Part shown: positions 1,267 to 18,523 of the stretch, piece after piece
Layout: every line of letters starts with the position of its first letter
How positions within the stretch are numbered: the first letter of the stretch is position 1
Assembly: GCA_039809905.1 (NCBI GenBank)
Contig: JBDHVY010000001.1
Coordinates: forward strand, 1,110,001 to 1,142,000
Direction of reading: 5' to 3'
DNA length: 32,000 nucleotides
Origin: Candidatus Babelota bacterium
Lineage (GTDB): Bacteria; Babelota; Babeliae; Babelales; Vermiphilaceae
Program-made: the position numbers and the translations under genes
Notes under the pieces: model-generated
The model's input: the letters and a program-made list of their open reading frames with translations, nothing else
The model's database searches: none
What the model was told of the DNA's origin: nothing

Positions 1267-2406
1267 GTGTTTAATACTCAATTTATTCTCCATCTAACGC
1301 TCATCGAGGGTATAGCTCCGAGTGTTATTCAAAAAATTATACAATCACAAAGATCTGGTGTGCAAACATCAGATCTTTACCATTTATCAGCATTTGATTG
1401 GATGAATTATTTTGGTATTTCAGAAAAATATGCACAAAAGTTAGTAGCAGGTCTTTCTGATATGACAATTCTTGAAAAAGAATTAGAACTGATACATGAA
1501 AATAAGATTCAGATAACTACTATTATCGATCAATCATATCCGGCATTATTAAAAGAAATTCATTTGCCTCCGGCGATTTTATATTACCAGGGAGGTAATT
1601 TTCCCTCAAAATCTTTAGCCGTTGTTGGTGCGCGTAAGGGTAATGAATATGGTCAACGTATTATTGATATGATAATTCCTGATCTTGTTGCTGCTGGTTA
1701 TGCGATTATAAGTGGTGGAGCGCTTGGTATTGATACCATGGCTCATCAAGCAGCATTGCGTTGTGGTGGAAAAACAATAGCAATTTTAGGTTCTGGATTA
1801 TTAAAGCCATACCCACCAACAAACAAAAAATTATTTGCTGCAATTATGGAAAGTGGCGGCATTGTTGCAAGTTCATATCCACTAAATATGGATCCATTGC
1901 CACATAACTTTCCTGCGCGTAATCGTATTGTAACTGGCTTATCGCAAGGTTGTTTGGTTGTGCAAGCGGCAAAAAAAAGTGGTGCTCTTATTTCCGCGCA
2001 TTGTGCATTAGAACAAGGCAGAGAAGTATTTGCAGTGCCGGGACCATTTGATGATGAATTAAGTTCTGGATGCAATGAAATTATTCAGCAGGGTGCAAAA
2101 TTAGTAATGAGCAGTGCTGATATATTTAATGAATTTGGTGATAAAATTGTGCATGCTGATAAACAAGCGTTTCAGCAACAAGTATTGTTTTCTCCTGCTT
2201 CATTTATTTCTTCTCAAAAAAAGTTAACAGAAATATATTCTGCTACTCAGCAAAAAATAATTCTTGTATGCAAACAACCAATGTCATTGGAAGATATTAT
2301 AAACATTACAGAATTATCTTTTGAGCAAGCTCAATCAGAATTGTTCAATTTGCAGCTTGATGGTGTTGTAATACAAGATTTTACGGGGATGTGGGTTGTT
2401 TGTTAA
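1267..2406 (+). CDS. dprA: DNA processing/protecting protein DprA (Smf)
   Basis: GTG start 3 nt after the gyrA stop. Classic DprA Rossmann-like core: LAVVGARKGNEYG...ISGGALGIDTMAHQAALRCGGKTIAILGSGLLKPYPPTNKKLF...GGIVASSYPL...PHNFPARNRIVTGLSQGCLVVQAAKKSGALISAHCALEQGREVFAVPGP, followed by a C-terminal winged-helix-like tail. Confidence 0.9.
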   Translation: MFNTQFILHLTLIEGIAPSVIQKIIQSQRSGVQTSDLYHLSAFDWMNYFGISEKYAQKLVAGLSDMTILEKELELIHENKIQITTIIDQSYPALLKEIHLPPAILYYQGGNFPSKSLAVVGARKGNEYGQRIIDMIIPDLVAAGYAIISGGALGIDTMAHQAALRCGGKTIAILGSGLLKPYPPTNKKLFAAIMESGGIVASSYPLNMDPLPHNFPARNRIVTGLSQGCLVVQAAKKSGALISAHCALEQGREVFAVPGPFDDELSSGCNEIIQQGAKLVMSSADIFNEFGDKIVHADKQAFQQQVLFSPASFISSQKKLTEIYSATQQKIILVCKQPMSLEDIINITELSFEQAQSELFNLQLDGVVIQDFTGMWVVC

Positions 2407-3355
2407 CCTGCTCAGAAAAAAGATTAGTTAACTGTTTTATAATGGTATTCAAGGTGCTCACTTCTTTCAGTTCTTTTTCTGGATTTCTTTTATTGTTAGA
2501 TGCAAATAGTCCCAACAAAAGAAACCATGGCGCGAGCATAATTGCTGACGCTGCTGCTAGACCTGGATTATTCGTATCAAAACTAAATAAACTGGATAAA
2601 CCAGAATTGTAATTTTCTGATTTGATTATAGAGACAATAATATTCATTTTTTTATGTTTACAAAGATCGATAAGTTTTAGAAATGAATAATCTTGATGAG
2701 TTAGCAGGAATGTATTCAGTTTTGTTTGATTAATTATACCAAGATTGCTCTCATAAAATTTCATAAAATCTTCATATGTTTGTTCTTGATTATCATTTAA
2801 TGAAGGTATTTCCAAAACATCAGGATACTGATTTTTTATAGTTTCAATAGAAACAGCAATTTTTTTTAGATCAGTCTTAAGTTGCTCTATTTTTACCTCA
2901 ACTGTTTTTTGTTCTCTTTCATACATGAAAAAATCATAGATTGCTCTTCCTGATTGTCGTGCAAAAGCAAAAGCTGAAAGCCCTCCAATAATGCCAGCGG
3001 TTCCCATAGAGATTTTGTCAATAATGCCCCGATAATTCTCTTGCCTTATATATTTGTTAAGATAATTTACACTTAATGCCGGACTTACCATTATTCCCGT
3101 AAATAGCGCTCTTAACAGTGTGTCGCCAACAGTTACGGTATTTTTAGTACGTATTTGTTTATATGTTTGGAACAGTTGTTCATCTAATGCTTGTCGTTTT
3201 TGTAGTAAATCATAAATTTTATCGGCGATTGAAATATCGGTTGCAGAAATTAAGGTATTATTTTTTTGATCTGAAGCTTGAGAATTGATAGAGCTTGTTA
3301 AAACTATATTGCTATAAAAAAATAAAGTGAATAAGAGTGGAATTCTTTTACTCAT
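2381..3355 (-). CDS. Hypothetical exported/membrane protein with coiled-coil-like segments
   Basis: Track ORF is 2381..3406. I prefer the Met at 3355 because MSKRIPLLFTLFFYSNIVLTSSINSQA looks like a signal peptide. Hydrophobic stretches occur mid-protein (ISMGTAGIIGGLSAFAFA) and near the C-terminus (AIMLAPWFLLLGLFA). No catalytic motif recognised. Confidence 0.55.
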   Translation of the reverse strand: MSKRIPLLFTLFFYSNIVLTSSINSQASDQKNNTLISATDISIADKIYDLLQKRQALDEQLFQTYKQIRTKNTVTVGDTLLRALFTGIMVSPALSVNYLNKYIRQENYRGIIDKISMGTAGIIGGLSAFAFARQSGRAIYDFFMYEREQKTVEVKIEQLKTDLKKIAVSIETIKNQYPDVLEIPSLNDNQEQTYEDFMKFYESNLGIINQTKLNTFLLTHQDYSFLKLIDLCKHKKMNIIVSIIKSENYNSGLSSLFSFDTNNPGLAAASAIMLAPWFLLLGLFASNNKRNPEKELKEVSTLNTIIKQLTNLFSEQVNKQPTSP

Positions 3356-14174: not shown

Positions 14175-15593
14175 ATGGATAAAAAAGTACGTGTTCGTTT
14201 TGCTCCATCACCAACAGGGCATTTGCATATTGGTGGCTTAAGAACAGCGTTATTTAATTGGCTTTTTGCGCGTCATCATGGTGGCGCGTTTTTACTTCGT
14301 ATAGAAGATACTGACGTTGAGCGATCAACACAGGAATATCGTGATTCAATTTTGCATTCATTTGCATGGACTCAATTGGAACATGATGAAGAAATTGTAA
14401 CCCAAAGTGAGCGTATTGCTGAGCATCAAAAAGTTGCAGAGCAACTCATTAAGCAAGGTAAAGCGTATCGCTGTTTTTGTTCACCAGAAGAAGTTGTAGC
14501 GCGTTATGGTAAAGCAACTGATGGTGATGCATTTGTGATGTATGATGGGTATTGCAGGAATCGAACAACGCAAGAAAGTGATAATTCAAGAGCATGTGTT
14601 GTTCGCTTTAAATTACCCGAAGATCGTCAAGAAGTTGTTTTTAATGATCTGATTAAAGGGCCCATTAGCTTCAATTTAGATCAATTTGATGATTTTATTA
14701 TTCTGCGATCTGGCGGATTTCCTATGTATAACTTTGTTGTGGTTGTTGATGATGCCTTTATGAAGATTACCCATATTATCCGAGGTGAAGAGCATATTGT
14801 TAACACACCAAAACAAATTTTGCTTTACCAAGCATGTGGATATGATGTCCCACAGTTTGCTCATTTGCCACTCATTTTAGGACCAAGTGGCGATAAACTG
14901 AGCAAGCGTGATGGTGCAACATCCGTAATTGAATATCGTAAGTCAGGATATATTCCCCATGCATTACTCAATTATTTGGCTCGGCTTGGTTGGTCGCATG
15001 GAGATCAAGAAATATTTTCGTTATCGGAACTTATTCAGCATTTTTCTTTGGATCACATTGGTACAAAAGGTGCCATTTTTGATTTTGAAAAACTTGCATG
15101 GGTAAATAGCGTATATCTGAAAGCAATGACACAAGAAGCGATTCTTGATGCAATTATTGCTGATGTTACTCCGAACTTTTTAACTGATCAGTGTGTTACT
15201 AGAACAGCTGAGGAAGTAAAACAAGTTATCGGGTTATACAAAGAACGAGTAAAAACATTACAGCACATGGTTGAAGAAATTGATCTGGTATTTAATGGCC
15301 CACGTGAACACAATAATGATGATATGCAAAAATGGATTTCAGCTGATTCTCGTCAACATCTGACTGCTATTATAGCAGCTCTGGAAACACAAAATGTTTT
15401 TACGCATGATAATTGTGCAGAAATTGCAAAAGAGCTTGCAACGCAGCTTGGTATTAAGTTAGTAACATTATTACAACCTATTCGTCTTGCCTTGCTTGGT
15501 AAAGCATCCGGTCCGGGAGTATTTGATTTACTTGCGGTAATTGGAAAAGAAGAAAGTATTGAGCGGCTTAGGATGTTTTGCGAGCTGCTTTAA
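14175..15593 (+). CDS. gltX: Glutamyl-tRNA synthetase
   Basis: RFAPSPTGHLHIGGLRTALFNW (HIGH motif), LLRIEDTD, CFC...C Zn-like cluster, HIIRGEEH, KLSKRDG (KMSKS motif), C-terminal anticodon-binding helices. Confidence 0.94.
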   Translation: MDKKVRVRFAPSPTGHLHIGGLRTALFNWLFARHHGGAFLLRIEDTDVERSTQEYRDSILHSFAWTQLEHDEEIVTQSERIAEHQKVAEQLIKQGKAYRCFCSPEEVVARYGKATDGDAFVMYDGYCRNRTTQESDNSRACVVRFKLPEDRQEVVFNDLIKGPISFNLDQFDDFIILRSGGFPMYNFVVVVDDAFMKITHIIRGEEHIVNTPKQILLYQACGYDVPQFAHLPLILGPSGDKLSKRDGATSVIEYRKSGYIPHALLNYLARLGWSHGDQEIFSLSELIQHFSLDHIGTKGAIFDFEKLAWVNSVYLKAMTQEAILDAIIADVTPNFLTDQCVTRTAEEVKQVIGLYKERVKTLQHMVEEIDLVFNGPREHNNDDMQKWISADSRQHLTAIIAALETQNVFTHDNCAEIAKELATQLGIKLVTLLQPIRLALLGKASGPGVFDLLAVIGKEESIERLRMFCELL

Positions 15594-15700
15594 TTTGAAA
15601 ATATAATTTTTTGTAAACAGTTGCTGGTGATAATTCATTCAGTGATGGCTTTAGATATGTTTTAATGAACGTGCCTGTTTAATACAAATAGTTCCTTATT

Positions 15701-15731
15701 CGCGCTCATCCTGAACTTGTTGAAGGATTAA
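15701..15731. repeat. Left arm of perfect 31-bp inverted repeat bracketing the GIY-YIG ORF
   Basis: cgcgctcatcctgaacttgttgaaggattaa is the exact reverse complement of 16057-16087. It lies 25 bp upstream of the ORF start. Confidence 0.9.
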
Positions 15732-15756
15732 GCGCGCTTTAATCAGAGAGTCTAAA

Positions 15757-16101
15757 ATGCAAAATCATTTTTACGTATATATTTTAAAATGTAAGAATGG
15801 AGCTTATTATGTCGGTCATACAGATAATATAGATCAGCGAATGTCACAGCATCATTTGGGCCTGATTGACAATTGTTATACGAAAAAAATGAGGCCTGTA
15901 GAGTTGTTATTTCTACAGGTCTTTTCTACTCGAGATGATGCTTTTCATGCTGAACGTCAAATTAAAGGTTGGTCGCGTAAAAAAAAAGAAGCTTTAATGC
16001 GAGAAGATTGGCAAGAGATAAAGGAGTTAAATGCATTGCAAAAGACGAAGAGCGCTTTAATCCTTCAACAAGTTCAGGATGAGCGCGGCGAAGACTCATA
16101 A
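15757..16101 (+). CDS. GIY-YIG nuclease family protein (small stand-alone UPF0213/YhbQ-like type)
   Basis: FYVYILKCKNGAYYVGHTDNIDQRMSQH (GIY...YVG), then ERQIKGWSRKKKEALM, typical of the short GIY-YIG family. The last approx. 15 codons are encoded by the right inverted-repeat arm. Confidence 0.85.
   Translation: MQNHFYVYILKCKNGAYYVGHTDNIDQRMSQHHLGLIDNCYTKKMRPVELLFLQVFSTRDDAFHAERQIKGWSRKKKEALMREDWQEIKELNALQKTKSALILQQVQDERGEDS
16057..16087. repeat. Right arm of perfect 31-bp inverted repeat (inside the 3' end of the GIY-YIG ORF)
   Basis: ttaatccttcaacaagttcaggatgagcgcg is the exact reverse complement of 15701-15731. Confidence 0.9.
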
Positions 16102-16143
16102 GCGGATTAAAGATATAACGTCTGTTTAATAAGGAATTTATCT

Positions 16144-17067
16144 ATGAAAATAGCATTATTATTTCCTGGATATGGTAATCAATTTGTTGGTATGGGCAAA
16201 GAATTGTATGACGAATATCGCGTTGTGCAAGAATATTTTGAAGAAGCTTCTAATTGTTTGGATATTAATTTTGTAAAGTTATGTTTTGCCTCGTCTGATA
16301 TTGAATTAGGAAAAATTAATAATGCATATACATCTTTGTTTTTAGTTGGTTCTTCAGTATACGCGGTTTTAAAAGAACATGGCATAGAGCCAGATGTTGT
16401 TATGGGCTATAACAATGGAGAAAGTGCGGCATTATTTGCTGCAGGGTGTTTTAGCTTACCTGATGGCCTCTATTTATTAAATAAATTTTCTTCATTTTAT
16501 CAGGAATTTATTGATGAAAATGAAGTTGATGCAATGCAAGTAATTGACTTTTCATCAAGAGATCTTGAAGTTCTTTGTGAAAAAATAAGCACTGATGAGT
16601 ATCCTATTTCGATTGCCATTTATAATAGTCAGACAGATCATATTGTTACAGGAAATCGTATTGGTCTTGGACAATTGCAAGATGCTATTGATGGCAAAGG
16701 AAAAATTGAATTTGTTGGTCCAGAAGTAGGATTACATTCATTATTGATGAATACGATAGTAGATGTATTGAAAAGCTATCTTGAAAAAGTAGATTTTAAA
16801 GATCTTAAAATTCCACTAATTAGTTGTATTGATGGAACTATAGTAACTGAAGGATCTGATACTAAAGATCGTTTTATCCGTCATATTAATTCGCCAATTC
16901 AATTTACCAAAGCAATGGAAAAATTAGTTGATTATGATTGTATTCTTATAACAACTCCTGGTGATGCATTAGCTCAAATGGTGCAGCAACATTATCCTGA
17001 AAAAATGGTTATCTCAATTGCAAAAAAAACAGATGTTGATACATTAAAAGAGACCTTAGGTAAATAG
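16144..17067 (+). CDS. fabD: FabD-family (malonyl-CoA:ACP transacylase fold) protein with substituted catalytic residues
   Basis: Collinear by eye with E. coli FabD: LLFPGYGNQFVGMG (FPGQGSQ), VVMGYNNGESAALFAAG (GHSLGEYSAL), VGLHSLLM (PSHCALM), NSPIQFTKAM (NPVQWTKS). Position next to acpP supports the family. Active-site changes are described in findings. Confidence 0.8.
   Translation: MKIALLFPGYGNQFVGMGKELYDEYRVVQEYFEEASNCLDINFVKLCFASSDIELGKINNAYTSLFLVGSSVYAVLKEHGIEPDVVMGYNNGESAALFAAGCFSLPDGLYLLNKFSSFYQEFIDENEVDAMQVIDFSSRDLEVLCEKISTDEYPISIAIYNSQTDHIVTGNRIGLGQLQDAIDGKGKIEFVGPEVGLHSLLMNTIVDVLKSYLEKVDFKDLKIPLISCIDGTIVTEGSDTKDRFIRHINSPIQFTKAMEKLVDYDCILITTPGDALAQMVQQHYPEKMVISIAKKTDVDTLKETLGK
17031..17067 (+). 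repeat. Copy A of duplicated fabD-like 3' end (the functional end)
   Basis: agatgttgatacattaaaagaga (23 nt, identical to 17118-17140) continues as ccttaggtaaatag. Encodes DVDTLKETLGK*. Confidence 0.9.
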
Positions 17068-17560: not shown

Positions 17561-18523
17561 ATGCTTCATTTAAATAAATGCCTTATGCTTTTTTTCTTAA
17601 CTATTTTTTCTTCTCTTTTTTCTTCTTTGAATCATTTTCCCAGAGGTAGAAACTTAGAGCTTAATATTATTTCTTGTTTAAATAGTGGAAGTGATGCAGC
17701 TCGAGCTGTAAGAGATGGCAATTATGATAGAGCCAAACAAATATTTATATTTTTTGAACCGCATTTAAGAATAGAGCTTTTAGATCATATAGAACATAGA
17801 AGAAATGCATTGATTGGTTATGATGAGCAACTCAGGAAATATGGAAAAGTTGAGTGCACTATGGATCCAAAATGTCCACCTAATTATATGCTGGATACAG
17901 ATCAAGAAGTTGAGATGCGTTTTAATGGAGTTGCAGATGGTGCAAAAACGGTGAAATTCGATAAGATGGTAGATATGAAAGAGTATCTAATACCTTATTC
18001 TTTAACTTTATCTGAACAACCGTTCAATACATTTGCTATAGAGATTCCTTATGATCCTGATAATAGCACAATAGAGATTCCTGTCGAGCTTAAAGAAATT
18101 GATTTTGCTCAAAAACAGAGCTATTTGAGCTATTATTATCCGGATGCAAAATCTAAGACGAAAGTATACAGAGGTACATTCTGCAAAAATGATGACATCA
18201 GGAGAAAAGAGCACAATTTTGAGACAATATCAATTCGAGAATTAGTTAAAAATAATAATATGCAAAAGAATGAATATCTCTTTCTAAGCTTAAAGCGTCT
18301 TTCTTCTCTTTCAGATTCTCTTTTTGATCGATTTCCAGATTCGATATATTTAAAAATAAAGTTGGATGTGTCACAAAAAAATAATCTTGTATCAGATAAA
18401 GAAGTAATGCGTAAAGCTTCAATTTATGGATATATTGTAGGCAATAAATTTTATTTCTGTGCATTAACAAGTATGTGTTCTTTGCTTGTATGGTGGTGCT
18501 ATTCGAACTTCAGAAAAGCATAG
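17561..18523 (+). CDS. Hypothetical protein with N-terminal signal-like and C-terminal hydrophobic anchor
   Basis: MLHLNKCLMLFFLTIFSSLFSSLN leader and C-terminal FYFCALTSMCSLLVWWCYSNFRKA. No domain recognised. Confidence 0.5.
   Translation: MLHLNKCLMLFFLTIFSSLFSSLNHFPRGRNLELNIISCLNSGSDAARAVRDGNYDRAKQIFIFFEPHLRIELLDHIEHRRNALIGYDEQLRKYGKVECTMDPKCPPNYMLDTDQEVEMRFNGVADGAKTVKFDKMVDMKEYLIPYSLTLSEQPFNTFAIEIPYDPDNSTIEIPVELKEIDFAQKQSYLSYYYPDAKSKTKVYRGTFCKNDDIRRKEHNFETISIRELVKNNNMQKNEYLFLSLKRLSSLSDSLFDRFPDSIYLKIKLDVSQKNNLVSDKEVMRKASIYGYIVGNKFYFCALTSMCSLLVWWCYSNFRKA

Follow-up and report, generated by a model that had tools for sequence, protein, structure and literature searches.

A small GIY-YIG nuclease gene between two outward-facing hairpins in the gltX-fabD spacer of a Candidatus Babelota bacterium: a likely Ssn-like unit

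The nuclease gene and the inverted repeat around it

We examined a 32,000-nucleotide stretch of the genome of a Candidatus Babelota bacterium (contig JBDHVY010000001.1, positions 1,110,001 to 1,142,000; hereafter the window), in which the spacer between gltX and a fabD-like gene holds a small gene for a GIY-YIG nuclease enclosed by a long inverted repeat. The upstream host gene, gltX (14175-15593, plus strand; Pfam PF00749 and PF19269), encodes glutamyl-tRNA synthetase, and the downstream one (16144-17067, plus strand; PF00698) encodes an acyltransferase, the relatives of which are named acyl carrier protein (ACP) S-malonyltransferase. Between them, an open reading frame (ORF) at 15757-16101 on the plus strand encodes a single-domain GIY-YIG nuclease of 114 aa (PF01541, residues 5-77, E 6.5e-19). 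The stretch 15701-15731 is the exact reverse complement of 16057-16087, and 325 nt lie between the two 31-nt arms. The match is prolonged to GCGC (15732-15735 / 16052-16056) if one bulge of 1 nt is allowed, and it continues outwards, imperfectly, to about 15694 and about 16097. When the 31-mer was searched for with up to three mismatches, it was found at these two places only in the window, with none expected from 100 shuffles. The arms have a G+C content of 49-51%, compared with 30-39% in their surroundings, and the right arm corresponds to codons 101-111 of the ORF, so that the last 15 or so residues of the protein are translated from it. An initial annotation, made from the sequence of the window, had pointed out the perfect repeat, its higher G+C content and its overlap with the end of the ORF, and all three descriptions are accurate.

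A Pfam search with the protein found neither a second domain nor a transposase family; the only other match was a weak one to the related T5orf172 model (PF10544, residues 6-75), covering the same stretch. The catalytic residues Y8, Y18, R28 and E66 are invariant in our protein alignment A1. The AlphaFold2 model (mean predicted local distance difference test score, pLDDT, of 80.7) consists of a single domain with a C-terminal helix, and the pLDDT of its tail is 49-60; the model thus predicts the GIY-YIG fold with confidence, and a poorly ordered tail where the arm is translated. The nearest solved structures are 1zg2 (E 3.7e-13) and 1ywl (E 4.6e-11), which are the UPF0213 proteins BH0048 and EF2693, followed by Slx1 and UvrC, and a Foldseek search with the model returned the same two entries as its top matches. 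More than 3,400 relatives were retrieved in a protein search, the best of them (67-88% identical) from Babeliales/Dependentiae-type assemblies, where two were sometimes present on one contig; no identical product of the window ORF is on record.

Close homologues of the protein end at 97-98 aa, before the hairpin that each arm represents (see below). The homologous ORF between pheT and lspA (locus L002) ends before its right arm, and therefore coding through the arm is incidental. The C-terminal tails present in alignment A1 (P0004, P0050, P0099, P0103, P0108 and P0068) are hairpin DNA read in three different frames, giving the strings ILRQAQDERG, PSTSSG and FDKLRTNG, and PEPVEG from the other strand, in proteins of Dependentiae, a gammaproteobacterium, a cyanobacterium and Binatia. 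Since the hairpin is translated in differing frames, its conservation resides in the DNA and not in the protein. Peptide strings that recur at protein ends in databases (LRQAQDER, PSTSSG, FDKLRTNG, PELVEG) are probably translated copies of this hairpin, and not protein motifs.

A directional hairpin motif and its distribution

The arms are not classical transposon ends; each of them represents a directional hairpin motif of about 35 nt. The motif consists of the tag CCG[T/C]TC[G/A], three variable bases, the sequence TGAGC[C/T]TGTCGAA and the complement of the three variable bases. Its core, TGAGCYTGTCGAA, is near-invariant; in the window version, TGAACTTGTTGAA, a G-C pair of the core has been replaced with A-T. 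A covariance model, R1, was built from motif copies and has exactly two matches in the window. The left hairpin (15701-15735, plus strand, sense; 36.1 bits, E 1.7e-7) is made up of the tag CGCGCTCA (15701-15708), the stem triplet TCC (15709-15711), the core TGAACTTGTTGAA (15712-15724) and the stem triplet GGA (15725-15727). It has in addition an outer stem, in which CGCGCT (15701-15706) pairs with AGCGCG (15731-15736), and its predicted fold as single-stranded DNA has an energy of -10 kcal/mol (z -3.5). The right hairpin (16053-16087, minus strand, antisense; 36.9 bits, E 1e-7) has its tag outward, to the right. The inverted repeat is perfect over 31 nt because both copies are of the same hairpin subtype.

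The stem was assessed in 147 copies of the motif, picked by their core sequence alone. The three pairs adjoining the core are paired in 95-99% of these copies, with 74, 70 and 42 double-sided changes, respectively. The covariation score was reached by none of 500 shuffles, and sliding the partner columns abolished the signal. The 5' tag is kept as sequence and not by pairing, which is no commoner there than column composition predicts, and the motif is therefore directional. A general outer stem (CCGTTCG with YGAACGG) was considered and rejected, its pairing being no higher than the column composition leads one to expect. One may speculate that the core would form U-A, tandem G.A/A.G and G-C pairs that close a loop of five bases. 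The motif pattern has 262 matches in 738 kb, compared with 1-9 in shuffled sequence, and R1 has 321 matches in 84 homologue loci. No match to Rfam was obtained at gathering thresholds, either for the whole window or for 14 G+C-rich homologue loci, nor at E<=1 for positions 15550-16200.

Homologues of the nuclease gene were collected in a scan at one genome per species, which gave 80 loci with proteins 43-62% identical to that of the window; with L002, a locus between trx and spoU (L001) and the window itself they make up a set of 83. The 80 loci span many phyla, with representatives from Desulfobulbus, Burkholderiales, cyanobacteria, Geobacteraceae, Nitrospirales, sphingomonads, Campylobacterota, Chloroflexota, Legionella, Flavobacterium, Gemmatimonas and others, and in most of them the best inverted repeat around the gene bears the common motif. 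When the pattern, R1 and inverted-repeat searches are combined, the layout hairpin(+), gene, hairpin(-) is found in about 50 of the 83 loci, with the sense copy no more than about 250 nt upstream and the antisense copy at or just past the stop codon. Several of the other loci are cut by contig ends. The usual spacing between hairpin and start codon is about 20 nt, and the whole unit measures about 385-400 nt. In L001 the ORF lies within an inverted repeat of 44 nt (95% matched), and in L002 within one of 96 nt (99% matched). Related cassettes are found in genomic contexts other than that of the window.

The motif is not confined to the surroundings of the gene. Far from it, the density is about 1.1 copies per 10 kb, with a rise to 12-15 per 10 kb in certain genomes, and the copies occur singly, as doublets, in tandem arrays and in alternating arrays; solo copies and doublets were also found on related Babeliales contigs. 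The 32-kb window contains no further 31-mer, and related hairpin copies are present in the loci and contigs of other genomes. At least 120 contigs from viral collections carry the motif as solo copies. None of these contigs encodes the nuclease gene, and phage records contain no close homologue of the window protein (best 41%).

Some copies are arranged in ways that deserve a separate mention. Regular arrays, with the motif on the same strand every 42/84 nt, 55 nt or 72 nt, or on alternating strands every 120 nt or so (L199 4066-4352; L155 8900-9099; L184 4374-4888; L168 4638-4950; L150 5349-5530), are reminiscent of the bacterial interspersed mosaic element (BIME) clusters of repetitive extragenic palindromic (REP) sequences. 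In sphingomonads, nested hairpins were seen (L139 4937-4987, L152 4828-4878, L157, L171, L194 and L205), in which a whole inner motif sits in the outer loop in the form TCC-TGAG-TA-[GCCGT TGAGCTTGTCGAA ACGGC]-GTATCGAA-GGA; the motif may have inserted into its own loop, or the whole may be a larger structure of two tiers. At L210 (1664-1745) and L002 (3336-3396), a second type of hairpin, GTTTACTGC-[T/A]GAGCYTGTCGAA-GCAT or GTAT, adjoins the right arm. After it comes a second copy, 20-26 nt long, of the outer tail of the arm (CAGGATGAGCGCAGCGAAGAACTGGA in L210), which is what the insertion of a solo hairpin with a long duplication might leave behind. Finally, L182 (6379-7261, Dehalococcoidia) has many repeats of another tagged hairpin, TGTCATTC-TGAG-YGMAG-CGAA-GAAT-CCA, beside the main motif. 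In its sequence, this hairpin joins the CGTC/TGTC-AT...AT-CCA frame of published REP sequences with the TGAG...CGAA core, hinting that the two hairpin classes may be related.

Insertion between gltX and fabD

On the contigs of relatives with FabD proteins 87%, 75% and 72% identical to that of the window, the gene order plsX, tetratricopeptide repeat (TPR) protein, gltX, fabD, acpP is kept, and the gltX-fabD spacers, of 23, 18 and 92 nt, contain no nuclease gene. A scan of metagenomes extended this comparison: gltX lies directly before fabD in each of the 69 related loci in which the sequence upstream of fabD is available, the spacer measures 18-174 nt in these relatives versus 550 nt in the window, and no GIY-YIG match was found anywhere in the 69 loci. 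The adjacency of gltX and fabD is therefore ancestral, and the cassette was gained in the window lineage. It is a lineage-specific insertion, and the empty sites that had been proposed as a check on the initial annotation exist in every relative with usable upstream sequence.

How much DNA was inserted can be judged from two comparisons. A cassette found downstream of serS (L210/L212), which encodes a protein 88% identical to that of the window, is similar to it from about GTTCCT to about GCGAAGA. This gives a probable conserved cassette at about 15694-16097 (plus strand), comprising hairpin, gene, hairpin and a few imperfectly repeated outer bases. At the nearest empty junction (L123-L125), on the other hand, gltX-TAA is followed by ATTTTTTAC TAAGGAATTTATCTATG, where the window reads ATTTTTTGTAAACAG ... 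CTGTTTAA TAAGGAATTTATCTATG; the window DNA missing there extends over 15613-16130 and includes, besides the cassette, some 80 nt of spacer to its left and some 33 nt to its right. The spacer also contains two imperfect direct repeats of uncertain meaning, aacgtGCctgtttaata on the left (15668-15684, plus strand) and aacgtctgtttaata on the right (16117-16131, plus strand), with CTGTTTAATA identical in both. They are present as described in the initial annotation, but they are separated from the arms by 16 nt and 29 nt, respectively, and do not abut them. Collapsing them would not join gltX directly to fabD, as had been thought, since about 100 nt of spacer would remain, versus 18-30 nt at the nearest empty sites. 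Short inverted and direct repeats were noted in the spacer outside the cassette as well, namely GTAAACAG plus two copies of CTGTTTAATA (15606-15620 / 15675-15689 / 16122-16131).

A target duplication was sought in the 39 cassettes with two hairpins. Between their 80-nt outer flanks, the median length of the longest exact match is 6 nt, the same as in a mismatched-flank control, and there is no family-wide signal of a fixed, transposase-type target duplication. The 10-nt exact flank match in the window stands at about the 99th percentile of the same control, which is unusual and not decisive. Long exact flank repeats were observed at L136 (20 nt, CAGGAGAATTTTGAGGAGTT) and L145 (24 nt, CTGGTACGGAATATGATAATTCCG), at irregular distances from the hairpins, unlike in most cassettes. 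Of the original description of the locus as a cassette bounded by terminal inverted repeats with a target duplication, the compact inserted block is retained. The ends have to be described otherwise: the arms are directional hairpins, and the flank matches of the family are at control level.

The same spacer has received hairpins in other lineages. Six relatives (L225, L226, L227, L228, L230 and L239) have a hairpin without the gene in the orthologous gltX-fabD spacer. In five of the six, the gene-less copies are (-)(+) doublets with their tags inward (for example L230 258-343, L228 1084-1186, L227 2341-2485 and L225 2115-2199), and L239 has a single (-) copy overlapping the end of gltX (2291-2325). 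The L230 doublet folds into one long single-strand hairpin (-22.8 kcal/mol, z -4.95). Because the orientation is opposite to that in the cassette, the gene-less copies are not remnants of a cassette that has lost its gene, and hairpins and cassette therefore entered the spacer independently. The idea that the cassette is a pre-existing doublet split by the gene was also rejected, the doublets being (-)(+) and the cassette (+)gene(-). The gltX-fabD spacer is either a recurrent landing place or among the few places that tolerate insertions. At another site, L002 and L213 have the pheT-lspA position in common, and insertions can therefore persist over time. The contexts known from elsewhere (serS, pheT/lspA, trx/spoU) were sought in the window as reciprocal empty sites, and none of them is present. 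Further downstream in the window, a 320-aa ORF that follows acpP (17561-18523) has no match in Pfam.

Alternative explanations and relation to known systems

What kind of element, then, is the cassette? We consider it likely that the locus is an Ssn-like unit, that is, a stand-alone GIY-YIG nuclease gene with two hairpins that the nuclease likely recognises, inserted in the gltX-fabD spacer. The Ssn family comprises single-domain GIY-YIG proteins of about 94 aa (CDD cd10448), the genes of which are flanked by hairpin repeats, called NTS in Neisseria and generalised as SRM (Chenal et al., 2025, Nat Commun 16:2388, PMC11893778). SsnA binds its hairpin only as single-stranded DNA, and only one of the two strands; the cut falls a few nucleotides 5' of the motif, and neither duplex DNA nor RNA is a substrate (PMC11893778). 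The same authors likened NTS-ssnA-NTS to an insertion sequence and to REP sequences with their associated tyrosine transposases (RAYT), with mobility put forward as a hypothesis (PMC11893778). For the window, direct support comes from the anatomy of the unit, the covariation of the stem, the association of gene and hairpin across phyla, the insertion polymorphism and the homology to SRM-flanked proteins. The activity of the window protein as a single-stranded DNA nuclease is predicted by analogy with SsnA, and it may be the nuclease itself that drives the spread.

Other explanations were weighed against these findings. The locus could be a cut-and-paste element, in which a transposase would bind the arms as terminal inverted repeats and the direct repeats would represent a target-site duplication. 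This would fit a block that is bounded by inverted repeats and missing from relatives, as well as the high-ranking 10-nt repeat of the window and the flank repeats of 20-24 nt at L136 and L145. We nevertheless find it improbable: the only product encoded, a nuclease domain of about 95 aa, matches no transposase family, most cassettes have no flank repeats beyond the control median, and where such repeats exist they are never at a fixed distance abutting the arms. Moreover, the arms are internally covarying, directional hairpins that are also found singly and in arrays, and the type of stem differs between the two arms in 18 of 39 loci. This last result bears equally on an RNA-level device, in which the arms would pair within a gltX-ORF-fabD transcript, forming a long stem around the ORF for RNase III processing or translational control. 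The 431-nt region does fold as RNA with its arms paired (-143.5 kcal/mol, z -8.2), and no promoter-like site was found within the cassette, which makes co-transcription with gltX plausible; such a fold is, however, expected from any perfect inverted repeat. Where the stems differ between the arms, the stem of each arm stays complementary in itself. The arms have the same stem triplet in the remaining 21 of the 39 loci, compared with a chance expectation of 22%, and this excess would be explained if both arms are of recent origin, or by gene conversion between them. The motif also occurs without an enclosed ORF, the region has no Rfam match even at E<=1, and SsnA does not interact with RNA (PMC11893778). 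A 31-bp RNA stem, the alternative offered in the initial annotation, is thus thermodynamically possible and not conserved, and we hold an RNA-level device to be quite improbable.

A nuclease of the GIY-YIG type with an insertion polymorphism, together with relatives in which the same spacer bears hairpins and no gene, also brings to mind a free-standing homing endonuclease gene that inserted into, and split, a palindromic repeat representing its own cleavage target. Such a gene is highly improbable here. The protein has no DNA-binding domain, no intron or intein is present, and the gene lies in the spacer between two bacterial housekeeping genes; the NCBIfam model for group I intron endonucleases (TIGR01453) gives 16.6 bits, where its cut-off is 56. 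The opposite orientations of gene-less doublets and cassette leave no split doublet either. The earlier remark that homing-endonuclease movement does not describe this locus was therefore well founded. Least probable of all is an ordinary, vertically inherited housekeeping gene of the UPF0213 (YazA/YhbQ) type with incidental terminator-like hairpins on both sides. It is UPF0213 that gives the best matches in sequence and structure (1zg2; 43% identity to B. subtilis yazA), but the empty site in all 69 relatives already contradicts such a history, the contexts in other genomes are unrelated, the sequence of the flanking hairpins is kept across phyla, and yazA has no such hairpins.

For the Ssn-like unit, which we prefer, the following course of events may be proposed. 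The gene would encode a nuclease of about 95 aa, for which the bracketing hairpins, in opposite orientation and with their 5' tags outward, are the most likely recognition sites. By analogy with SsnA of Neisseria, the enzyme probably binds the hairpin in single-stranded DNA, on one strand, cuts just 5' of the tag and leaves duplex DNA and RNA alone; because the tags point outward, each end of the block is predicted to have one cut beyond it, the two cuts being on opposite strands. The block as a whole, with gene and both hairpins (about 15694-16097), would have entered the gltX-fabD spacer in the window lineage as part of a horizontally spreading, REP/RAYT-like repeat system, in which gene-less hairpins and doublets would spread as well. 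It is tempting to speculate that the cuts would drive the copying or movement of the block and of the gene-less doublets. With one occupied and 69 empty sites, and gene-less doublets recurring in the same spacer, mobility can be tested in this system. We are more doubtful about an extended version of this proposal, in which the block would be an autonomous mobile element with the nuclease acting on single-stranded DNA as its sole encoded function, would have the gene-less doublets as passengers in the manner of REP doublets (REPINs), and would spread across phyla. If it were true, the class of "orphan" hairpin repeats would gain its missing mobilising enzyme. The predicted specificity, if true, would make the protein a new site-specific cutter of single-stranded DNA.

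The comparison with the Ssn family itself was made on the level of proteins and of hairpins. Members of that family are single-domain proteins of less than 150 aa that are either assigned to cd10448 or have a blastp match to N. meningitidis SsnA (CAX49033.1) with E<1e-10 and at least 75% coverage, and the published SRM pattern is HGTCWYN(0-2)YYVSBRHN(0-5)WNVSBRGN(0-2)RNCYNB. Canonical SRM-flanked proteins were retrieved with a consensus query, and the comparisons use the database entries alone. Like the Ssn proteins, the window protein has a single GIY-YIG domain and is shorter than 150 aa, as are its 97-98-aa homologues, and its gene is flanked 5' and 3' by inverted hairpins with a conserved tag outward. 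The CGTC-type hairpins that flank the genes at the canonical loci L214, L215 and L217 have the same tag-outward orientation. In both systems the hairpin is directional, with a conserved upstream tag and a stem, and repeats are also dispersed away from the gene, for the window clade in genomes other than that of the window. A profile-profile comparison (hhalign) of the window clade with the SRM-flanked proteins gave a probability of 97.9% (E 4e-13). The hairpins, by contrast, are of different classes, CCGYTCR-NNN-TGAGCYTGTCGAA-NNN' for the window and CGTCATTCCCGCG..GCGGGAATC for SRM. R1 has no match at canonical SRM loci, and the SRM pattern, which does detect the NTS control and L215/L217, has 8 matches overall versus 5 in shuffled sequence. 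The host is different too, being here of the Babeliales/Dependentiae type, with two hairpin copies in 32 kb. A matrix of bit scores separates three groups: scores are 95-182 bits within the window clade, across phyla, 139-175 within the canonical SRM-flanked proteins and 76-92 within the UPF0213 proteins. As an observation on the canonical systems, L214 (Pseudolabrys) carries two Ssn-type genes about 1 kb apart in opposite orientation (1774-2064, minus strand, and 3001-3291, plus strand), each with its own CGTC-type hairpins; the strict SRM pattern misses these, which have GG where YY is required.

Several results weigh against the interpretation as an Ssn-like unit. The window protein is only 29% identical to the SRM-flanked protein P0307 (BLASTP, over 78 aa, E 2e-9), and it belongs to a separate clade, which scores 36-60 bits with the canonical SRM-flanked proteins and 55-75 bits with UPF0213. 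The published SRM pattern was found within 500 nt of the gene in none of the 83 window-clade loci. The UPF0213 proteins (B. subtilis YazA, E. coli YhbQ, BH0048, EF2693) are closest to the window protein in both sequence and solved structure, and the B. subtilis representative, yazA, is an ordinary gene of a conserved operon, in which it overlaps both trmNF and rsmI, and has no flanking hairpins. At the locus itself, the 32-kb window contains only two copies of the hairpin, and a genome-wide repeat population in the host is thus hypothetical. In addition, about 110 nt of extra spacer and the imperfect direct repeat around the cassette are left unaccounted for. We conclude that the locus probably works like an Ssn unit, but it is kept outside the Ssn family as defined, because of the missing SRM pattern, the low identity to the canonical member and the higher scores with UPF0213.

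Chenal et al. (2025) came from a broad literature search; narrower searches that combined GIY-YIG with inverted repeats, UPF0213/YhbQ, COG2827 or REPIN/RAYT returned nothing relevant. Several other known systems share features with the cassette. From the UPF0213 genes it differs in being an insertion with flanking hairpins, and not a stable operon gene as in trmNF-yazA-rsmI. The GIY-YIG homing endonucleases (I-TevI, the Seg proteins) have the catalytic fold and the mobility of the gene in common with it, but the window gene lacks a DNA-binding module, an intron and a phage context, and it has flanking repeats. The IS200/IS605 elements resemble it in having subterminal hairpins that are recognised as single-stranded DNA, and in the absence of target duplication; the cassette has neither TnpA (Y1) nor TnpB, and its hairpins are on opposite strands. 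The similarity to REP/REPIN and RAYT systems extends to the layout, since in these too a small gene lies between two inverted copies of a repetitive extragenic hairpin, and the window-type hairpins likewise occur in alternating arrays (L184, L168, L155) and in doublets, which fold into long single-strand hairpins (L230). Here, however, the enzyme is a GIY-YIG nuclease in place of an HUH/Y1 tyrosine transposase, the GTAG tag is missing, and the system is found across phyla and often in several copies, whereas RAYT genes are single-copy and vertically inherited. The CGTC-tagged REPs are tagged hairpins without a dedicated transposase, for which no associated gene was reported (Di Nocera et al., 2013, PMC3733652). 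They are directional like the window-type hairpins, mostly form head-to-head dimers and occur in strongly overlapping taxa (sphingomonads, Sulfurovum, relatives of Gallionellaceae), and they differ in the sequences of tag and stem-loop (PMC3733652). Next to the Ssn proteins and their SRM hairpins, the window clade thus represents a second pairing that extends across phyla, of a distinct clade nearer to UPF0213 with a distinct, almost invariant hairpin. This suggests that the design of a small GIY-YIG nuclease with its cognate hairpin is broader than the Ssn family as first delimited.

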